A DNA stretch of 64,000 bases, from assembly GCF_022846255.1 (NCBI RefSeq), contig NZ_AP025682.1, one strand, 5' to 3'. A program made the position numbers and the translations under genes. The notes beneath the pieces were generated by a model. That model saw nothing but the letters and a program-made list of their open reading frames with translations, was not told where the DNA came from and did not search any database. Source of the stretch: Escherichia coli. GTDB taxonomy: Bacteria > Pseudomonadota > Gammaproteobacteria > Enterobacterales > Enterobacteriaceae. Positions 3,225 to 61,101 of the stretch are shown one piece after another. Position 1 is the stretch's first letter, and each line of letters opens with the position of its first letter.

Positions 3225-4778
3225 ATGATGAAAACTGTATTTACAACATTATCAGTCATATTCGGCGTGATATTTTCTCACAGTGTTCTAGCTCAGGACG
3301 TTACTATTTATTATACGAATGACATTCACGCACATGTCAATCCGGCAAAAATCATCGCTGTTGATAAGAACAGACTTATAGGTGGTATGGCTAATATTGC
3401 AGGCATCGTTAATGAAGCGAAGAAAAAAAGCAAAGATGTGTTTTTCTTTGATGCAGGCGACTATTTTACCGGGCCGTATATCAGCACCCTGACCAAAGGT
3501 GAAGCTATTATTGATATCATGAACACTATGCCCTTTGATGCGGTGTCTGTTGGTAATCACGAGTTCGATCACGGTGTGCCCAATATGGTGTCTCAGTTAT
3601 CAAAAGCAAAATTTCCCATTCTGCTGGGAAATATCTACTACACCGATACGAATAAACCAGTTTGGGATCATCCGTGGACCATTATCGAAAAAGATGGTTT
3701 AAAGATTGGTGTGATTGGATTGCATGGCGCATTCGCTTTCTATGATACAGTCGCGGCAAAAGCACGTGAAGGCGTAGAAGCCAGAGACGAAATTAAATAT
3801 TTAAATAAAGCACTTGCAGAATTAAAAGGTAAAGTCGACATTACCGTTTTGCTAATTCACGAAGGTGTCCCGGCGCGTCAATCAAGCTTTGGTAGTAAAG
3901 ATGTGGAGCGGCTACTACAGGCAGATATTGAGACAGCTAAAAAAGTGAATGGTGTTGATGTCTTAATTACCGGTCACGCACATGTCGGAACACCGCAACC
4001 AATAAAAGTTAATAACACATTAATTGTATCTACCGATGCATACGGCACCAACATCGGAAAACTTGTGCTTGATTACAATCCGAAAACGAAGAAAATTGAT
4101 AGTTATAATGGTGAGTTAATCACCATCTTTGCAGATCAATTTAAACCTGACACCATCGTTCAAAATACTATTGATAAATGGAGTGCAAAGCTTAACAAAA
4201 TAACACAGGAAGTTGTCGGCCATTCTCCCGTAGTTTTAACACGTGAGTATGGTAGTTCCTCTTCTACCGGCAACCTTATTCTTGATGCAATGATGGAAAA
4301 AACACCTGATGCCGTTGCCGGATTTCAAAATAGCGGTGGGATGCGAGCTGATTTTCCTAAAGGCGATATCACACTGGGAGATGTTATTAGCACATTCCCC
4401 TTTAATAATGACCTCATCGAGATGGATTTGACGGGCCGCGATCTCAAATCATTGATGACGCATGCAACCAATCTAACTAACGGTGTGTTACAAGTTTCTA
4501 AAAGTGTTGCGGTTGTCTATGACAGCAAAAAACCACTCAACCAACGGTTAATCTCTTTCACCATTAACGGCAAACCCGTGGAAGATAATCAAACATATCG
4601 TATTGCCACGCACTCCTTTTGTGCCAGTGGTGGTGACGGTTTTGAAGCATTTTTGAATGGAAAAAATGTGAAAACGATACCGGGAACAACCTCGGCGGAA
4701 TCTATCATCGATTATTTCAAAAATCACAAGCCTATCACCCCAGACTTAACTAAACGAGTCATGGACGTCGCCAAATAA
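3225..4778 (+). CDS. secreted UshA-family metallophosphoesterase / 5'-nucleotidase, paralog 2 (start may be second ATG at 3228)
   Basis: signal peptide ending VLA-QDV; motifs [35 protein letters not shown]; AT-rich coding sequence. Confidence 0.8.
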   Translation: MMKTVFTTLSVIFGVIFSHSVLAQDVTIYYTNDIHAHVNPAKIIAVDKNRLIGGMANIAGIVNEAKKKSKDVFFFDAGDYFTGPYISTLTKGEAIIDIMNTMPFDAVSVGNHEFDHGVPNMVSQLSKAKFPILLGNIYYTDTNKPVWDHPWTIIEKDGLKIGVIGLHGAFAFYDTVAAKAREGVEARDEIKYLNKALAELKGKVDITVLLIHEGVPARQSSFGSKDVERLLQADIETAKKVNGVDVLITGHAHVGTPQPIKVNNTLIVSTDAYGTNIGKLVLDYNPKTKKIDSYNGELITIFADQFKPDTIVQNTIDKWSAKLNKITQEVVGHSPVVLTREYGSSSSTGNLILDAMMEKTPDAVAGFQNSGGMRADFPKGDITLGDVISTFPFNNDLIEMDLTGRDLKSLMTHATNLTNGVLQVSKSVAVVYDSKKPLNQRLISFTINGKPVEDNQTYRIATHSFCASGGDGFEAFLNGKNVKTIPGTTSAESIIDYFKNHKPITPDLTKRVMDVAK

Positions 4779-55284: not shown

Positions 55285-55916
55285 AACGACGTGACACCAT
55301 CGTGCGCTACACCGCGCCGGAACGTATCAACCACTGGATCACCGCCTTCTGCTTCATCCTGGCGGCGGTGAGCGGGCTGGGCTTTTTGTTCCCGTCCTTC
55401 AACTGGTTGATGCAAATCATGGGCACACCGCAGCTGGCGCGCATTCTGCACCCGTTTGTCGGCGTGGTTATGTTTGCCTCGTTCATCATCATGTTTTTCC
55501 GTTACTGGCATCACAACCTAATCAATCGGGATGATATCTTTTGGGCGAAGAATATTCGTAAGATCGTCGTCAACGAGGAAGTAGGTGACACCGGGCGTTA
55601 TAACTTCGGTCAGAAATGCGTTTTCTGGGCGGCGATTATTTTCCTGGTTCTGCTGCTGGTGAGCGGCGTGATTATCTGGCGTCCTTATTTTGCGCCTGCT
55701 TTCTCAATCCCGGTGATCCGATTCGCGTTAATGCTGCATTCATTTGCCGCAGTGGCGTTAATTGTGGTTATCATGGTGCATATCTACGCCGCCCTTTGGG
55801 TGAAAGGCACGATTACCGCCATGGTGGAAGGATGGGTGACCAGCGCCTGGGCGAAGAAACATCACCCGCGCTGGTACCGTGAGGTCCGCAAGACAACGGA
55901 AAAGAAAGCTGAATGA
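55281..55916 (+). CDS. fdoI: formate dehydrogenase-O cytochrome b556 subunit
   Basis: 211 aa, four TM helices. Confidence 0.95.
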
Positions 55917-56842
55917 GTATTCGCATAATCCCGCAAGATGAGCTGGGTTCGAGCGAGAAACGTACGGCGGATATGATTCCGCCGTTATTGTTCCCTCGGC
56001 TCAAGAATTTATACAACCGCCGCGCCGAGCGTCTGCGCGAGCTGGCAGAAAATAATCCGCTGGGTGATTACCTGCGCTTTGCTGCGCTTATCGCCCACGC
56101 CCAGGAAGTGGTGCTGTACGACCATCCGCTGGAAATGGATTTGACCGCACGCATTAAAGAAGCCAGCGCACAAGGCAAGCCCCCGCTGGATATTCACGTT
56201 CTGCCGCGTGATAAGCACTGGCAAAAGCTGCTGATGGCGCTGATTGCTGAGCTGAAACCTGAAATGAGCGGCCCGGCGCTGGCAGTGATTGAGAATCTGG
56301 AGAAGGCATCGACTCAGGAGCTGGAAGATATGGCCAGCGCACTGTTTGCCTCTGATTTCTCGTCCGTCAGCAGCGATAAAGCGCCGTTTATCTGGGCTGC
56401 GCTGTCGCTCTATTGGGCGCAGATGGCTAATCTGATCCCCGGCAAAGCCCGCGCTGAATACGGCGAACAACGTCAATATTGCCCGGTATGTGGCTCTATG
56501 CCGGTGTCCAGCATGGTGCAAATTGGCACCACTCAGGGTCTGCGTTACCTGCACTGCAACCTGTGTGAAACTGAATGGCACGTAGTGCGCGTAAAATGCA
56601 GCAACTGTGAACAGAGCGGCAAACTGCATTACTGGTCGCTGGATGACGAACAGGCCGCGATTAAAGCCGAAAGCTGCGATGACTGCGGCACTTACCTGAA
56701 GATTCTTTATCAGGAAAAAGAACCGAAAGTTGAAGCCGTGGCAGATGACCTCGCCTCTCTGGTACTGGACGCGCGAATGGAGCAAGAAGGCTATGCCCGT
56801 AGTTCCATTAACCCGTTCCTGTTTCCGGGTGAAGGGGAGTAA
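55913..56842 (+). CDS. fdhE: formate dehydrogenase formation protein FdhE
   Basis: 309 aa, paired CxxC motifs. Confidence 0.95.
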
Positions 56843-56934
56843 TCTCTGACGTTTTCCGGGTGGCGCTGGTCGCCCGGATTACAGCTCATAGGGTGTGACG
56901 ACACCTGCTATTCCCGCAAAATCTCTCGTATTTC

Positions 56935-56974
56935 GCGAGGCGTTTTCCAGATATGATGTAACAGTTGCAGTTAT
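56935..56974. repeat. repeat copy A: GCGAGGCGTTTTCCAGAT plus TGTAACAGTTGCAGTTAT
   Basis: first segment recurs at 59036-59053 (one mismatch); second segment recurs at 57397-57414 (one mismatch). Confidence 0.7.
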
Positions 56975-57057
56975 TATAAGTTCAAGTAAAACAGCCTTGT
57001 ATTAATACCAGAATAAGGGCATCTGGTTTTTTATATTCATGAATAAAAAAACTTTTG

Positions 57058-57276
57058 TCATTCCTTATGCTGCTTACATAGTTCTTCAACACCAACTGCC
57101 TCGTCCCTTTGCCTGCCGCCTTTTGCCTTACGCACCGGAAATTGCTGCCGCTCCAGATATTGCTCTACCGCTTCGCGTAAAATTGCAGAGCGCGAAACCT
57201 TACGCCATCCCCGAAGCTTGTTCAGCCGTTTAATTGCCTCTTCTGATAAATGAAGAAAAACCGTATTCATCGCCAT
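57058..57276 (-). CDS. ribbon-helix-helix (CopG-like) putative transcriptional regulator, YiiE/YiiF-like
   Basis: 72 aa from MAMNTVFLHLSEEAIKRLNKL; SD AAGGTGG upstream. Confidence 0.7.
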   Translation of the reverse strand: MAMNTVFLHLSEEAIKRLNKLRGWRKVSRSAILREAVEQYLERQQFPVRKAKGGRQRDEAVGVEELCKQHKE

Positions 57277-57374
57277 TACCACCACCTTACATATATTACT
57301 CATTAATGTATGTGCGAAAATTACGCCGGAAAGTTAATTAACGAAAGCGGATTTTTTCATATTGTTTTGTTTTT

Positions 57375-57414
57375 GCGAGACGGCATCCAAAGATAATGTA
57401 ACAGTTTCAGTTAT
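57375..57414. repeat. repeat copy B: GCGAGACGGCATCCAAAGAT plus TGTAACAGTTTCAGTTAT, upstream of the RHH gene
   Basis: contains tandem CAGTT pentamers; candidate operator. Confidence 0.6.
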
Positions 57415-57502
57415 TTCAATTGTTACTCAAAAATGGTTTATTACTTTTAATTAAGCGGGGGCACATCTACAGGAAAGAAACAACAAATAATAAGGATGAA
57501 TT

Positions 57503-57619
57503 ATGGATGCTATAAATATTTTATATTCAAGAATATTTTTTGATTGGGTCTTCATTTGCTTCATCAGGATGGTGTACCCGAAAAAGTCAGCAGCTTTACC
57601 GCACCAGGGTTTAAGGTGA
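57503..57619 (+). CDS. candidate small hydrophobic protein (38 aa), unannotated-type sORF
   Basis: SD TAAGGA 7 nt upstream of ATG; MDAINILYSRIFFDWVFICFIRMVYPKKSAALPHQGLR; stem-loop at 57637-57663 downstream. Confidence 0.3.
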   Translation: MDAINILYSRIFFDWVFICFIRMVYPKKSAALPHQGLR

Positions 57620-57671
57620 AATCTACCATTCATAACGACCGGTCAGTGCCGCACCAACCGGTCTTTAATTG

Positions 57672-57950
57672 TTAGTAGTAGTAAATTTGTGGATAACAGT
57701 CCGGGAACCAGACGATTCCTTCCGGATCATCCCCCTGCATTACCCGATGACATTGGCGTCGATCATCTGCGCGACGGCGAAGCGTAGTATAGAGCCGCTT
57801 CCATTCATGATCGCCCGGTGTACTGTAGTTTACCCAACAATCCATTGAAGGGTGACGCCATTTACCTGTAAGTGTTGGGATCCCTGAATGCTTATGCGGC
57901 TTCGCTTTACCATTACGATCCCTATCTTTACGCGTATTAAACGTGGACAT
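57672..57950 (-). CDS. hypothetical basic Cys/Trp-rich small protein (92 aa)
   Basis: strong SD AGGAGA 7 nt upstream of ATG. Confidence 0.45.
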   Translation of the reverse strand: MSTFNTRKDRDRNGKAKPHKHSGIPTLTGKWRHPSMDCWVNYSTPGDHEWKRLYTTLRRRADDRRQCHRVMQGDDPEGIVWFPDCYPQIYYY

Positions 57951-58011
57951 TTTTAGTCTCCTGTTAAGAGTTCTAAAAATGTGCTTCCTTAAAATAGTTC
58001 ATCATTTTCCC

Positions 58012-58224
58012 TTAATTCGCATAGCGTGCTTTTGCACGAATTTCCGATACGCGGGGACCATTATGATAGCGTCGATGCCCACACATCCAACAAGAACAAA
58101 TACAGGGAGTACGAAAGCAAATACCTGATGCTTTTTTGCTTCCATCGCCTGCAGTGCGATAACGACAGCGGATTTTTTTTAATCGCACCATATGATGGCG
58201 ACGTTCAGCACGATTACGGGTCAT
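58012..58224 (-). CDS. hypothetical Arg- and Cys-rich small protein (70 aa), possible zinc-binding
   Basis: strong SD AGGAG 7 nt upstream of ATG; cluster CFRTPCICSCWMCGH. Confidence 0.4.
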   Translation of the reverse strand: MTRNRAERRHHMVRLKKIRCRYRTAGDGSKKASGICFRTPCICSCWMCGHRRYHNGPRVSEIRAKARYAN

Positions 58225-58308
58225 AGCAAAACTCCTGAGCAGGCGGCACTATGCCGCTTTCATAGGAGTTCTGAATGCTGGTGCTTTCTGTATGGCATAA
58301 CCATGCCT

Positions 58309-58599
58309 CTAACGGTTAAGTGCTTGCAGCACATGTTGCGGATCATTGGCAATCGCTCGCAGCAAAGCCTTTGCAGGCCCGGTCGGTGAACGTCGCCCCT
58401 GCTCCCAGTTACGCAACGTGTCTACGCTTACGGAAATAAGATCGGCAAATTTAGATTGTGACAACCCTGAAGCGCGGCGTATTTCTTTGATTTTCATAGC
58501 ATCAACTTCAAAAGTCCGTGAAGGCTGTCGCGTTCCTTCAATAATTTCATTCATCTGGGCCATGCTGTGAGTCAACCGCTCAAAAAGTGCCTTATCCAT
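58309..58599 (-). CDS. XRE-family HTH antitoxin (HigA-like)
   Basis: 96 aa; HTH IRRASGLSQSKFADLISVSVDTLRNWEQGRR; start abuts toxin stop. Confidence 0.7.
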   Translation of the reverse strand: MDKALFERLTHSMAQMNEIIEGTRQPSRTFEVDAMKIKEIRRASGLSQSKFADLISVSVDTLRNWEQGRRSPTGPAKALLRAIANDPQHVLQALNR

Positions 58600-58911
58600 T
58601 TACCACCTCGTATTTAACAACCGGAGCATTGCTTTTTCCTGGGGAGACAGATCATCTTTAATACCCTTACGATAAATAAGCAGTAATCTGATCTCATAAT
58701 GTTTAACCTGATGAAAGTAAATAACCCTGACACCAGCACGTTTCCCCTTTCCTCCTGAGACCCATCGAACCTTTCTTAACCCACCAGTTTCAGGTATTAC
58801 CTCACCATAGTCAGGATTCAAGGCCAGGAAAAACTGAAAACGACTGAATTCATCGTCGTTCAGCAGTTTTTGAACATCTTCAGTAAAAATTTCCGTTTCG
58901 ATGAAGAGCAT
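58600..58911 (-). CDS. RelE/ParE-superfamily toxin (HigB-like, toxin-first operon)
   Basis: 103 aa; small basic protein immediately upstream of the HTH antitoxin. Confidence 0.6.
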   Translation of the reverse strand: MLFIETEIFTEDVQKLLNDDEFSRFQFFLALNPDYGEVIPETGGLRKVRWVSGGKGKRAGVRVIYFHQVKHYEIRLLLIYRKGIKDDLSPQEKAMLRLLNTRW

Positions 58912-58948
58912 AATTATACGCCATTGGCTTAGAGTAACAATCCTTTTT

Positions 58949-58965
58949 GTACGTCATTGACGTAC
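58949..58965. promoter_or_regulatory. perfect palindrome GTACGTCA-t-TGACGTAC upstream of toxin gene; candidate TA operator
   Basis: 8-bp arms; adjacent to TTGTTA-16-TATAAT promoter-like hexamers. Confidence 0.5.
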
Positions 58966-59035
58966 CATTGAAACCACTAGCTTACTGATAGTGCTCCAGC
59001 AAAACCACGTCTCTGCCGGGTTTGTCTTTACATTT

Positions 59036-59053
59036 GCGAGGCGCTTTCCAGAT
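59036..59053. repeat. repeat copy C: GCGAGGCGCTTTCCAGAT, 11 bp upstream of esterase start
   Basis: 17 of 18 identical to 56935-56952. Confidence 0.7.
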
Positions 59054-59064
59054 TTTTCACGCCC

Positions 59065-60048
59065 GTGAATTTCCCTGTATCCATCCAGCAAAAACGGGTG
59101 TATAAAACTGTACATTCATACAGCAAAATGAGTTCTACTATGGCACTGGAAAAAGGAATTGCAGAGTTAGTCGAAGAGTTTATCGCTGCGGGTCGCCCCT
59201 CATCGCGCCAACAAAGTATTACGCAGCGCAGAGAGGGCTATATCGCCAGCGCTGTCCTTGCGGGTGAGACAGAAACGCGGGTAGATATTCAGACTATCGA
59301 ACTTGAAGGGATGACCTTACGAATAGTGTCACCGCTGAATGCCCCGACATTACTCCCGACGATAATTTATTACTACGGTGGCTGTTTTGTTAGCGGCGGG
59401 TTCGCAACTCACGACAACCAGCTGCGCCAGTTAGCCTATTACGGGCAATGTCGGATTATTGCCGTCCAGTATCGGCTGGCACCGGAACATACTTTCCCCG
59501 CCGCCCATGATGATGCACAACGAGGTGCAGAATTAGTCCGGCAACACGCCGAACGACTCGGCGTTGATAAACAACGAATAACTCTTGCCGGTGACAGTGC
59601 GGGAGGGCATCTGGCGCTGGTAACTGCTTTGCGATTGAAGCGTGCTGGCGAGTGGCAACCAGCACAACTCATCTTAATTTATCCTATGCTTGATGCGACT
59701 GCGCATTTCGAAAGCTACATACGCAATGGTCACGATTACATCATCACACGCGACACTTTACTGAGCGGCTTTGAGATGTACCTGCCAGGCATTGAACGCA
59801 GGCATCCTGAAGCCAGCCCTATTTGGCGCAATGATTTCAATGGCTTGCCACCTGTACATATCATTACCGCTGAATACGACCCACTTTGCGATGAAGGTGA
59901 AGCGTTGTATCACCGCATGACAGGGCAAGGAGTGCAATGCACCTGCCAACGCTACCTTGGCGTTATCCACGGATTTTTTCAGTTAGGTGGTATCAGTGAG
60001 GCTGCGCGATCGGCGCTACGGGATGTTGCCTGGAGAGCGGGAAGGTAA
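59065..60048 (+). CDS. alpha/beta-hydrolase esterase/lipase (hormone-sensitive-lipase family); start uncertain (GTG 59065, ATG 59128 or 59140)
   Basis: GDSAGG nucleophile elbow, YYGGCF oxyanion motif, C-terminal HGF. Confidence 0.7.
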   Translation: MNFPVSIQQKRVYKTVHSYSKMSSTMALEKGIAELVEEFIAAGRPSSRQQSITQRREGYIASAVLAGETETRVDIQTIELEGMTLRIVSPLNAPTLLPTIIYYYGGCFVSGGFATHDNQLRQLAYYGQCRIIAVQYRLAPEHTFPAAHDDAQRGAELVRQHAERLGVDKQRITLAGDSAGGHLALVTALRLKRAGEWQPAQLILIYPMLDATAHFESYIRNGHDYIITRDTLLSGFEMYLPGIERRHPEASPIWRNDFNGLPPVHIITAEYDPLCDEGEALYHRMTGQGVQCTCQRYLGVIHGFFQLGGISEAARSALRDVAWRAGR

Positions 60049-60111
60049 CTCCGGACCAGGGCCCAGAAAAGGTTTTCAGATTGAAAACCTTTTCAGTCAA
60101 GTAAAACGCCC

Positions 60112-61101
60112 CTACTCTTCTTCGTTTCCGCCCTCTTCATACGGACCAAATGGCTTCGCGGGCAGAACGATATACGTGCCTTCAAACACTGCACCCGGCG
60201 TCTCGTCGCCAAAGATTTCGACCTGCATTTGTACCCGCGCTTTTCGTCCGCGCGCCAGACGGTCGAGATCGCCACTTAAGGCACCAAGGTCGGCTACCGC
60301 ATGGGGTTTACCACTAATCGGTTTGCTATAGCGGATATGCGCATCCGCCAGAATAATCGTTCCGCCGAGGTGGCGTTCGCGCAGCATCAGCCAGATAAGC
60401 CCCCAACCGGTGAGCGTAGCCAGCGAGAATAAACTCCCGGCAAACAGCGTGTGATGCGGATTCTGATTGCCGGTTTCCGGCATGGTGGTGATAAATTTTT
60501 GCCCGGTATATTGCTGAATGCGCACACCCATTTTTTCGCTTAACGGGATATGTTCATACCACGCTTGCTGGAGCTGGGCGCACCAGTCGCCGCGATGAAG
60601 AATATCATCCAGAGTGGCAACAGGTTTTATCATCAAAAAATGGCGAATCGGCGTGGTGGTTGGCGTGGTGATTTCACCCTGATTAACAAACCCCAGCTTG
60701 GCGAAAAACTCCACCGCGTCTTCACGGGCGCTACAGGTCACGCGCTTAACGCCTTCCTGACGTGCCACCGACTCCAGGGTCATCGCCATCAGCGTGCCTA
60801 ACCCTTTGTCCTGCACGTCGGGATGAACGGCCATAAAGCGAATGGACGCTTCATTGTCGGCATTAATATACAGTCGGCCTACCGCTACCAGATTACCCTG
60901 CTCGTCGACGACCATCTGGTGATGCGCCATCGCATCCCACGCGTCGCGTTCCGAACCTTTTGGTTGATGCAGGGGCTTACGCAACATTTCCCAGCGAAAC
61001 TGATAGTAACGCTCTAATTCTTCTTCTGTTTGTGGAACCCGAAGGTGATACATAGCGATACTCTCTCTTGTTTCCCGTGACAACCCTGGAAGCTGGCTCA
61101 T
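60112..61101 (-). CDS. yiiD: GNAT acetyltransferase / thioesterase fusion protein YiiD
   Basis: 329 aa, [33 protein letters not shown]. Confidence 0.85.

Follow-up and report, generated by a model that had tools for sequence, protein, structure and literature searches.

Repeats between fdhE and an esterase gene of Escherichia coli as probable copies of one upstream element in a decaying array of small modules

Introduction

Short sequences that recur between bacterial genes have been described in several settings. The operators of Arc, CopG and the ribbon-helix-helix (RHH) antitoxins lie over the core promoter of the genes that they control, and RHH tetramers use an 11-nt spacing between half-sites at Arc/CopG-type operators. 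Integrons hold tandem small modules, each with a recombination site (attC/attI) that is recognized by an integrase. Tandem paralogs may share their 5′ regions, and promoters of toxin-antitoxin (TA) modules can be orphaned. Finally, putative mobile promoters are highly similar intergenic sequences located upstream of non-homologous genes (Matus-Garcia et al. 2012, PMC3488235).

Here, we analyzed direct repeats located between fdhE and an esterase gene in a 64-kb stretch of E. coli DNA (contig NZ_AP025682.1), hereafter called the window; positions are those of the window unless another locus is named. Between fdhE and fabY, small modules appear to lie in tandem in an array that is decaying. The repeats are probably three copies of one element found upstream of such modules, and their 20-nt core is a putative protein-binding cis element.

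Results

A first-pass annotation had listed two separate 18-mers, GCGAGGCG(T/C)TTTCCAGAT at 56935-56952 and 59036-59053, and TGTAACAGTT(G/T)CAGTTAT at 56957-56974 and 57397-57414, the latter with tandem CAGTT pentamers. Both were recovered at these positions, and both are real and non-random, as shuffling of the 64-kb window gave 0.00 and 0.06 chance matches, respectively, with two to three mismatches allowed. A repeat search revealed, however, that they are adjoining halves of one 45-nt unit rather than two repeats. Copy A (56931-56975, minus strand; core at 56932-56951) and copy B (57371-57415, minus strand; core at 57372-57391) are 80% identical and spaced by 440 nt, and copy C (59027-59053, minus strand; core at 59033-59052) consists of the left half of the unit only. 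A 20-nt core, TCTGGAAARCGYCTCGCAAA, is common to the three copies; it is degenerate in copy B, which differs from the degenerate 20-mer pattern at three positions. All copies are direct, and the search detected no inverted partner of theirs within 2.6 kb. Copy B lies 95-139 nt upstream of the yiiE ATG. Copy C precedes the toxin ATG by 122 nt and the esterase ATG by 87 nt. The 11 bp given earlier for this last distance had to be corrected, since RefSeq places the esterase start at ATG 59140 and not at GTG 59065.

The gene yiiE (57058-57276, minus strand; RefSeq annotation of an identical locus) encodes a CopG/RHH protein of 72 aa that is 41% identical to YiiF over the RHH domain and is a paralog of YiiF/VapB. 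An imperfect inverted repeat, ACATACATTA-N5-TAATATATGT (57289-57313, minus strand; checked by script), is found some 12-36 nt before the yiiE start codon and is unchanged in an alignment with the diverged K-12-type allele; it is a better candidate for a YiiE operator than the 45-nt repeats. Another inverted repeat, GTAACAGTT-N11-AATTGTTAC (57398-57426), was detected in copy B by the repeat search, and a weak promoter-like site, TTGAAA-18-TATCTT (57419-57390), overlaps this copy.

Two ORFs without a family separate yiiE from the TA pair: one of 92 aa (57672-57950, minus strand; RefSeq hypothetical), with no match in Pfam, NCBIfam or PADLOC, and one of 70 aa (58012-58224, minus strand), annotated in some strains only. 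Strain a15 and others do not have segment 57777-58170 of the window. The TA pair is composed of a NadS-family HTH antitoxin (58309-58599, minus strand; NCBIfam NF041265, 60.7 bits for a cut-off of 60; nadS in RefSeq) and a RelE-like toxin of 103 aa (58600-58911, minus strand; weak match to Pfam RelE PF06296, E=0.006), named RelE/ParE family toxin by RefSeq in some genomes. The two genes abut at 58599/58600. Upstream, the toxin/nadS promoter region contains a promoter-like TTGTTA-16-TATAAT (58940-58913) and a perfect palindrome, GTACGTCA-T-TGACGTAC (58949-58965; 100% complementary), a candidate antitoxin operator. With adjacent small genes and a palindrome, the toxin/NadS pair is predicted to be a type II TA system, and so is the module from which the vapBC remnant described below derives.

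The esterase gene (59140-60048, plus strand; RefSeq CDS) encodes an alpha/beta hydrolase of the hormone-sensitive-lipase family, with an NCBIfam LipP1-like match (E=1.5e-70) under the curated cut-off. A LexA-box-like palindrome, CTGTACATTCATACAG (59108-59123), lies in the space from a TATAAA hexamer to the start of the esterase gene; it is one of three CTGT-N8-ACAG sites in the window. This box matches the LexA consensus at 15 of 20 positions (counted by eye) and is intact in Citrobacter and Enterobacter; in Superficieibacter and Phytobacter, ACAG is changed to CCAG. The esterase is therefore probably under LexA control, judging from this site.

The left edge of copy A is a deletion junction. 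Positions 56700-56937 of the window are about 98-99% identical to two comparison loci, L005 and L007, with an annotated vapC (6180-6554 in L007) and an annotated RHH antitoxin gene, and this homology breaks at ...GTATTTCGCG|AGGCG. The final 59 nt of vapC, which codes for a PIN toxin, are still present with the stop codon (56879-56937, minus strand) and are joined to copy A by a 657-bp deletion. The same scar was found in 678 of 5,426 genomes, including the type strain. Copy A has an identical counterpart in BL21 and in MRY15-117, 94-137 nt ahead of yiiF in the former and of vapB in the latter, and from these alignments we interpret it as the distal part of the 5′ region of a yiiF(vapB)-vapC module that was lost, leaving this part orphaned. 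The deletion, at a microhomology of 3-8 nt, would have taken the antitoxin and most of the toxin and left the upstream element. YiiF is 81% identical to the RHH antitoxin that adjoins a VapC toxin in other strains; by this homology, YiiF of K-12, which is catalogued among the uncharacterised transcription factors, appears to be an orphan VapB-type antitoxin. Each stage of decay is found across strains, namely a full vapBC, an orphan antitoxin (K-12 YiiF), and the upstream element alone (this window). At cybC-nrdG, the toxin of relBE was also lost first, as with vapBC.

The fdhE-fabY interval is hypervariable: at least 80% of the present arrangement was found in 1,270 of the 5,425 matching E. 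coli genomes. A hybrid of copies B and C, TTTTTGCGAGACG|CTTTCCGGAT, is present in 6 of 5,426 genomes; in it, the yiiE leader continues directly into the region upstream of the esterase, and 1.66 kb corresponding to the small ORFs and the TA pair are missing. Repeat copies therefore recombine occasionally. In strain 23AR0303, segment 58230-58334 of the window is duplicated around the nadS-toxin-esterase block (it matches 3961-4063 of this locus, and the self-match of 2144-2248 with 3961-4063 is at 89.5%). This 105-nt repeat is the true indel boundary of the block, and copy C lies inside the block.

A search for the core revealed about 24 Enterobacterales loci in at least nine contexts, with unrelated flanks and unrelated genes downstream. 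These contexts include relBE at cybC-nrdG, a RelE/ParE-HTH pair at ilvA-ilvY, a Gp49-HTH pair, vapBC and toxin-nadS in other genera, C4/isrK-like antisense-RNA units, and the spacer between yfhM and a PTS gene. Citrobacter, Enterobacter, Superficieibacter, and Phytobacter also have the core in the space that separates the esterase from either a TA module or fdhE; in Phytobacter, one copy lies directly between the esterase and fdhE. In orthologous contexts, identity is 97-100% in the core and mostly 24-90% in the 60-nt flanks, with the left flank of relBE (99%) as the exception; as these loci were collected by an exact core match, the apparent conservation is inflated. The nearest gene or RNA unit is 37-310 nt away from the core, which is found in either orientation, and this variability fits no single promoter geometry. 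It is present in the sseA-yfhM spacer of Kosakonia but absent from the orthologous spacer of E. coli. On true plasmids or phages, it was not found: the sole matches are mislabelled chromosomes, for which reason a plasmid or phage origin was rejected. When phages were searched with the C4 unit, the 37-nt a1b1 core was the only match. The searched literature contained no match to the core sequence. Four loci have another conserved block downstream; it belongs to the a1b1/isrK element and is not general.

Within the fdhE-fabY array, each core-bearing module has one core, always in the same orientation, and other modules have none (a DUF6708 pair, a 'transposase'/hypothetical pair, and HigB-HTH). 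The right half of the unit is confined to the E. coli yiiE/yiiF copies and is not kept upstream of K-12-type yiiE or of vapB in other genera. E. coli K-12 has two perfect copies of the core, one ahead of yiiE (by 96-115 nt) and one ahead of yiiF (by 94-113 nt). In the K-12 yiiD-yiiE spacer, gSELEX peaks are recorded for RpoS and for SlyA or another factor, located to the spacer only.

The regions upstream of yiiE and of yiiF/vapB align from the repeat through to the start codon, with about 77% identity over about 150 nt. That yiiE and yiiF are tandem paralogs explains the likeness of copies A and B. On the minus strand, a module would consist of an optional AATAACTGNAACTGTTACAT.. segment, the core, a leader of about 95-120 nt, and the gene or genes. 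Copy B would serve yiiE, copy A would formerly have served the neighboring yiiF(vapB)-vapC module, and copy C would be a core alone, located where the RelE-like toxin/NadS operon and the esterase gene diverge. We infer that the core is a protein-binding site at the edge, on the promoter side, of small autonomous modules. Incidentally, the direct copies would offer short homology for occasional deletions, such as the one between B and C.

Discussion

Before our comparison, the 18-mers at 56935 and 59036 had been proposed to be att-like sites, or scars of the insertion of an RHH/TA cassette between fdhE and the esterase. The same orientation of the copies, the rearrangement junction adjoining copy A, and the single Phytobacter core between the esterase and fdhE would all agree with an islet of this kind. 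However, the expected counterpart in genomes lacking the cassette was not observed: a synthetic query for an empty site bounded by A and C had no single-piece match in 5,426 complete E. coli genomes. Moreover, the junction at copy A is a vapBC deletion rather than an insertion boundary, the indel of the TA-esterase block is bounded by the 105-nt repeat, and yiiE, inside the supposed cassette, is a tandem paralog of yiiF outside it and is annotated in all arrangements fetched but that of ETEC4090 (5% coverage). The six ORFs of 56843-60111 match no recombinase, integrase, or transposase family; they match RHH, HTH antitoxin, RelE-like toxin, and esterase families only, two of them being without a family. 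The islet reading is thus largely refuted and extremely unlikely, and what stands of it is that copy A abuts the vapBC scar and that B/C hybrids exist. A dedicated site-specific recombination system that shuffles addiction and immunity cassettes in an integron-like manner, with the core as the crossover site, would also account for one core per module in a constant orientation in the array, and it predicts rearrangement junctions inside the core, as seen for two of them (the B/C crossover and an end of the vapBC deletion). The core accompanies TA islets at three other chromosomal sites as well. Nevertheless, these single islets have one core and not two flanking copies, the core of the relBE insert is about 100 nt inside and not at the edge, and its orientation relative to the cargo varies. 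Since, in addition, other modules of the same array do without it, the genes examined include no associated recombinase, true plasmids and phages yielded no core, and only 6 of 5,426 genomes display core-to-core recombination, we regard such a system as very unlikely. A MITE or IS remnant was rejected, as the copies are all direct and neither an inverted partner within 2.6 kb nor a true plasmid or phage match was found, and so was an integron cassette array, with no integrase among the ORFs and no paired inverted repeats around the core.

Regulatory readings fare differently for the two halves of the unit. Operators bound by YiiE (and YiiF/VapB), for auto- or cross-regulation, would suit the location of both full copies upstream of RHH paralogs, the promoter-like site overlapping copy B, the AACTG tandem repeats 6 nt apart in the right half together with the inverted repeat of copy B, and a core readable by eye as a pair of CT(C)G(G/C)AAA half-sites with a spacing of 11 nt. 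Yet the core also precedes RelBE, RelE/ParE-HTH, Gp49-HTH, and C4 RNA modules as well as yfhM/PTS genes, none with an RHH partner, and the right half is not maintained upstream of K-12-type yiiE or of vapB in other genera. In the strain studied here, the core at yiiE has three mismatches while the RHH domain of YiiE, compared by eye, is unchanged, which indicates a weak constraint at copy B; the conserved inverted repeats beside the start codons are at more typical operator positions. As an explanation of the repeats, RHH operators are rather unlikely; an operator role is possible for the right half and unlikely for the left half. The GG and GC of the core are at the canonical spacing of a sigma-54 (-24/-12) promoter, TGG-N9-CGC, that would drive the RHH and TA genes, and they are among the invariant columns of the alignment of the yiiE and yiiF/vapB upstream regions; a scan of the gene strand of the K-12-type allele detected no consensus sigma-70 promoter upstream of yiiE or yiiF. 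Even so, the core scores 3.7-5.3 bits with a weight matrix derived from 50 E. coli sites verified by ChIP, far below real sites (minimum 7.9, median 16.1), and it points away from the adjoining genes in several contexts. The main-text tables of K-12 sigma-54 ChIP-seq list no site at yiiE or yiiF despite the two perfect cores; they do list the fdoI site, which is in the window at 55434-55450 with a canonical TGGC...TGCA. A sigma-54 promoter was rejected on these grounds and has next to no likelihood. Other candidates were also discarded: a sigma-70 promoter inside the core (no conserved hexamers in either direction), an RNA element or anti-SD pairing (no common structure in nine folded leaders, no Rfam match in the window), and an intrinsic terminator (no shared hairpin). 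In the frames SGKRLAK and FARRFPD, changes at the two variable positions of the core are synonymous; a hidden small ORF was rejected, with no start, stop, or flank conservation shared between contexts. To our knowledge, the core fits none of the marbox, Ada box, FadR, Cra/PurR/RbsR, IHF, Ter, or SlyA consensus sequences; these comparisons serve as leads.

We thus favor copies of one upstream element in a decaying array. A more specific and unlikely proposal, which we advance tentatively, is that the core is the recognition site of a single Enterobacteriaceae protein, either a regulator/insulator or a recombinase, and marks the promoter-side edge of small selfish modules. If so, this site would tie the expression or the gain and loss of these modules to one host factor, and the modules marked in this way would comprise four type II TA families, RHH genes that stand alone, and C4 antisense-RNA units of the P1 immI kind.

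As for the repeats, they are nothing unusual: a TA hotspot in decay offers one more case of regulatory DNA that was duplicated and of scars left by deletions. The idea of a mobile 2.1-kb islet is corrected. The locus displays each stage of this decay, from TA pair to orphan antitoxin to orphan upstream element. A further useful outcome is a 20-bp element, without a match in the literature searched, that is common to unrelated TA and antisense-RNA immunity modules across genera. Should it bind a common factor, the regulation or turnover of many addiction modules would become accessible through this one element.

Compared with described systems, the repeats resemble the operators of Arc, CopG, and RHH antitoxins in being short direct or inverted repeats with helical-turn spacing upstream of an RHH gene, but they are located 95-139 nt upstream of the start and probably not over the core promoter, and the core is not limited to RHH-controlled genes. 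As in integron arrays, tandem small modules, many of them TA pairs, each have one short conserved copy in the same orientation, and recombination between copies is occasionally seen. Unlike integrons, the locus lacks an integrase, an imperfect palindrome of the attC type, and a GTTRRRY core; its modules would each have their own promoter, and single islets are without two flanking copies. The tandem RHH paralogs yiiE and yiiF, with their homologous upstream regions, correspond to what is known of tandem-paralog 5′ regions and orphaned TA promoters, except that the upstream block is about 77% identical at the nucleotide level for proteins at 41%, and that the core is also common to non-paralogous modules. 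Finally, similarity of intergenic sequence within and between genomes, upstream of non-homologous genes, is what defines putative mobile promoters, and by its sequence the core would belong with them, published length thresholds aside. It differs from them in that only 20 nt are shared, in both orientations and with no conserved promoter hexamers, and in that the core is enriched beside TA and phage-type immunity modules.

Three copies of one repeat unit in the fdhE-fabY interval

Both 18-bp direct repeats that a first-pass annotation placed at 56935-56952/59036-59053 and 56957-56974/57397-57414 are present and are non-random relative to shuffled sequences (0.00 and 0.06 chance matches expected, with two to three mismatches allowed). 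They are not two separate repeats, as had been proposed. A repeat search joins them into a single 45-nt unit, which occurs in full as copy A (56931-56975) and copy B (57371-57415), 80% identical and spaced by 440 nt, and as its left half only in copy C (59033-59053). A 20-nt core, reading TCTGGAAARCGYCTCGCAAA on the minus strand, is common to the three copies, with one mismatch in A, three in B, and none in C. Copy C lies 87 nt upstream of the esterase and not 11 bp before it, because the RefSeq start is the ATG at 59140.

The copies are found between fdhE, which ends at 56842, and fabY (yiiD; 60112-61101, minus strand). In the RefSeq annotation of an identical locus, the order from left to right is fdhE, yiiE (CopG/RHH; 57058-57276, minus strand), a 92-aa hypothetical, nadS (annotated as an HTH antitoxin), a 103-aa toxin, an alpha/beta hydrolase, and fabY. 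This interval is highly polymorphic: of 5,425 matching complete E. coli genomes, 1,270 have at least 80% of the arrangement in the window. Strains of the BL21/K-12 type carry fdhE, yiiF, yiiE, a pseudogene fragment, and fabY, while strain a15 has both RHH genes, the toxin-antitoxin (TA) pair, and the esterase. An additional CopG gene and a DUF6708 pair are found in AVS0153; another two-gene block adjoins fabY in O157:H7 and 23AR0303; and a VapC toxin beside an RHH antitoxin immediately follows fdhE in MRY15-117 and E7-1N7. Among comparison loci from other genomes, alternative cargo consists of a 304/297-aa gene pair, a DUF6708 pair, and a HigB-HTH pair (L006 7842-9656; L004 708-2321; L051 2330-3092), the last adjoining a truncated esterase. 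The 304/297-aa pair is sometimes labeled "transposase" in RefSeq, and no family match was found for either gene. The core was not found upstream of any of these three pairs. ISL3-family and IS621 (IS110-family) insertions also occur within the interval of some strains. The two small ORFs at 57672-58224 (92 and 70 aa) are basic and rich in Cys, His, and Trp, and matched no Pfam, NCBIfam, or PADLOC family; a 394-bp deletion in many strains (window 57777-58170; absent in L003, L005, L006, and L007) takes parts of both.

Origin of the copies

Compared with vapBC-bearing strains, the window is ~98-99% identical from fdhE to 56937, including the final 59 nt of vapC, and beyond this position its alignment jumps to sequence 94 nt upstream of vapB. 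The deletion junction, ...GTATTTCGCG|AGGCG, shows a microhomology of 3-8 nt, and 657 bp are missing relative to these strains. This jump identifies copy A as the distal part of the upstream DNA of a vapBC module that has been deleted. The first 18-mer begins at this scar, and the same scar was found in 678 of 5,426 genomes, among them ATCC 11775, the type strain, at 100% identity.

The K-12 protein YiiF (L002 771-1013), an uncharacterised transcription factor according to the literature, is 81% identical to the VapC-paired RHH antitoxin of other E. coli (L007 6180-6796), which marks it as an orphan antitoxin of the VapB type. YiiE is a paralog of YiiF (41% identical). Where a strain keeps both genes, the DNA upstream of yiiE can be aligned with that upstream of yiiF/vapB over ~150 nt, beginning at the 45-nt unit and ending at the start codon; BLAST of these regions gave ~77% identity over 78 nt and aligned nothing in the coding DNA except one 28-29-nt match. 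An upstream region plus RHH gene was thus duplicated in tandem, and the repeat is the part of this duplication that has been best preserved.

The repeats had also been read as att-like scars bracketing a 2.1-kb islet. The synthetic junction expected if the A-C segment were absent was run against all 5,426 E. coli genomes, and none gave a single-piece match. The best matches were two pieces spanning yiiE, in six genomes. In FHI_NMBU_03, the leader of yiiE is joined to a hybrid copy, TTTTTGCGAGACG|CTTTCCGGAT, B-type on the left and C-type on the right, followed by the esterase upstream region; this genome lacks the 1.66 kb that carries both small ORFs and the toxin/NadS pair. The B/C hybrid in six genomes indicates that the copies can recombine, though rarely, but A and C are not the limits of a unit. 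The real flanks of the nadS-toxin-esterase block in 23AR0303 are a 105-nt direct repeat, 89.5% identical (L009 2144-2248 and 3961-4063, equivalent to window 58230-58334), and none of the six ORFs of the interval matched a recombinase family. These three results speak against the att-site reading. The repeats are shown to be a single upstream element, copied along a tandem array of RHH/TA modules; one copy was orphaned by deletion and another pair occasionally recombines. The 105-nt repeat includes the final 26 nt of nadS, and O157:H7, without the block, retains one copy.

Operator and promoter candidates

The other reading in the first-pass annotation, operators for the RHH regulator, could apply only to the right half of the unit, as the core half is also found upstream of RelBE, RelE/ParE-HTH, and C4 RNA units. 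The right half contains AACTG repeats, with an inverted repeat at 57398-57426 in copy B, and may be a YiiE-binding site; conservation of this half does not extend to the yiiE upstream DNA of K-12-type strains or to that of vapB in other genera. Two gene-proximal sites are better operator candidates than the repeats: the inverted repeat ACATACATTA-N5-TAATATATGT (57289-57313), closer to yiiE and identical across diverged yiiE alleles, and, ahead of the toxin gene, a perfect palindrome at 58949-58965, GTACGTCA-T-TGACGTAC.

For the toxin/NadS pair, the best sigma-70-like match, TTGTTA-16-TATAAT (58913-58940), ends 1 nt before the annotated toxin ATG (58909-58911); one of three things is atypical here, namely the start codon, the promoter call, or the leader. 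The corresponding Citrobacter sequence is CATAAT-AAAA-ATG. A LexA-box-like palindrome, CTGTACATTCATACAG (59108-59123; flanks 59106-59125), closely follows a TATAAA hexamer and precedes the esterase ATG by 17 nt. It agrees with the SOS-box consensus at 15 of 20 positions (counted by eye) and is intact ahead of the esterase in Citrobacter and Enterobacter, with ACAG changed to CCAG in Superficieibacter and Phytobacter. The esterase, which is of the hormone-sensitive-lipase type, may be under SOS control.

The 20-nt core at other loci

An exact-pattern scan for the core, with one genome per species, returned 37 loci, ~24 of them in Enterobacterales and in at least nine contexts with unrelated flanks. 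Two matches (L030, L038) are E. coli yiiE-yiiF contigs filed as Robinsoniella sp. and Bacillus coahuilensis, probably through contamination; the remaining dozen, from unrelated phyla, look like chance or coding matches. The core was not found on genuine plasmids or in phages, and its sequence had no match in the literature searched.

In E. albertii, E. whittamii, and Salmonella, the core precedes a RelE/ParE-HTH pair located between ilvA and ilvY; in one species, it precedes a Gp49-family toxin and HTH pair downstream of clpA; and in Enterobacter, Superficieibacter, and Citrobacter, it precedes vapBC and toxin-nadS beside the esterase. It is also found upstream of antisense-RNA units of the C4/isrK type, like immI of phage P1, at 37 nt in one orientation (Enterobacter, RIT691) or 58 nt in the other (Lelliottia, Enterobacteriaceae 89). 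In Enterobacter, Lelliottia, and relatives, these chromosomal C4 antisense RNA, a1b1 and isrK-like units (L017 750-949; L019 5250-5466; L024 1689-1867; L026 4815-4904) sit downstream of clpA or of a gene for an ABC ATPase, and each is followed by an acidic ~150-aa ORF with no family match. Kosakonia has the core between the divergent yfhM and PTS genes, and the orthologous E. coli spacer lacks it. In Phytobacter, a single copy is found between the esterase and fdhE, with nothing else there. Within orthologous groups, the core is 97-100% identical and the adjacent 60 nt mostly 24-90%, a comparison biased by the choice of loci by exact match to the core; the relBE left flank (99%) is an exception.

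A sigma-54 promoter, prompted by the TGG-N9-CGC spacing, was rejected: with a weight matrix built on 50 ChIP-verified E. coli sites, the core scores 3.7-5.3 bits, whereas real sites score at least 7.9, with a median of 16.1. The main-text tables of K-12 ChIP-seq list no sigma-54 site at yiiE/yiiF, despite two perfect core copies in K-12-type strains. An intragenic sigma-54 binding site reported within K-12 fdoI (IS47; PMC4591121) is kept in the window at 55434-55450 with one mismatch (CTGGCGCGCATTCTGCA) and looks canonical. Also discarded were a sigma-70 promoter (no hexamers conserved with the core), a small ORF (none common to the core contexts), and an RNA element (no common fold with ribosome-binding sites, and no Rfam family in the window). 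Conservation and position suggest, with modest confidence, that the core is a putative protein-binding cis element, which would mark the promoter-side edge of small autonomous modules. A recombination site is still a live alternative, as two rearrangement junctions, the vapBC deletion and the B/C hybrid, fall inside the core. The repeats themselves are ordinary; the widespread 20-mer is the part that deserves an experiment.

In E. coli, the core also precedes relBE, within a 709-bp insert that separates nrdG from cybC (L047 474-1182). It sits 63 nt from relB and is oppositely oriented, ~100 nt in from the edge of the insert. This insert, in which the relE stop abuts the nrdG stop, occurs in ~450 of 5,426 E. 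coli genomes. In the O145 strain RM8995 (L054 478-717), relB alone is left as an orphan antitoxin, the same toxin-first decay as at fdhE-fabY.
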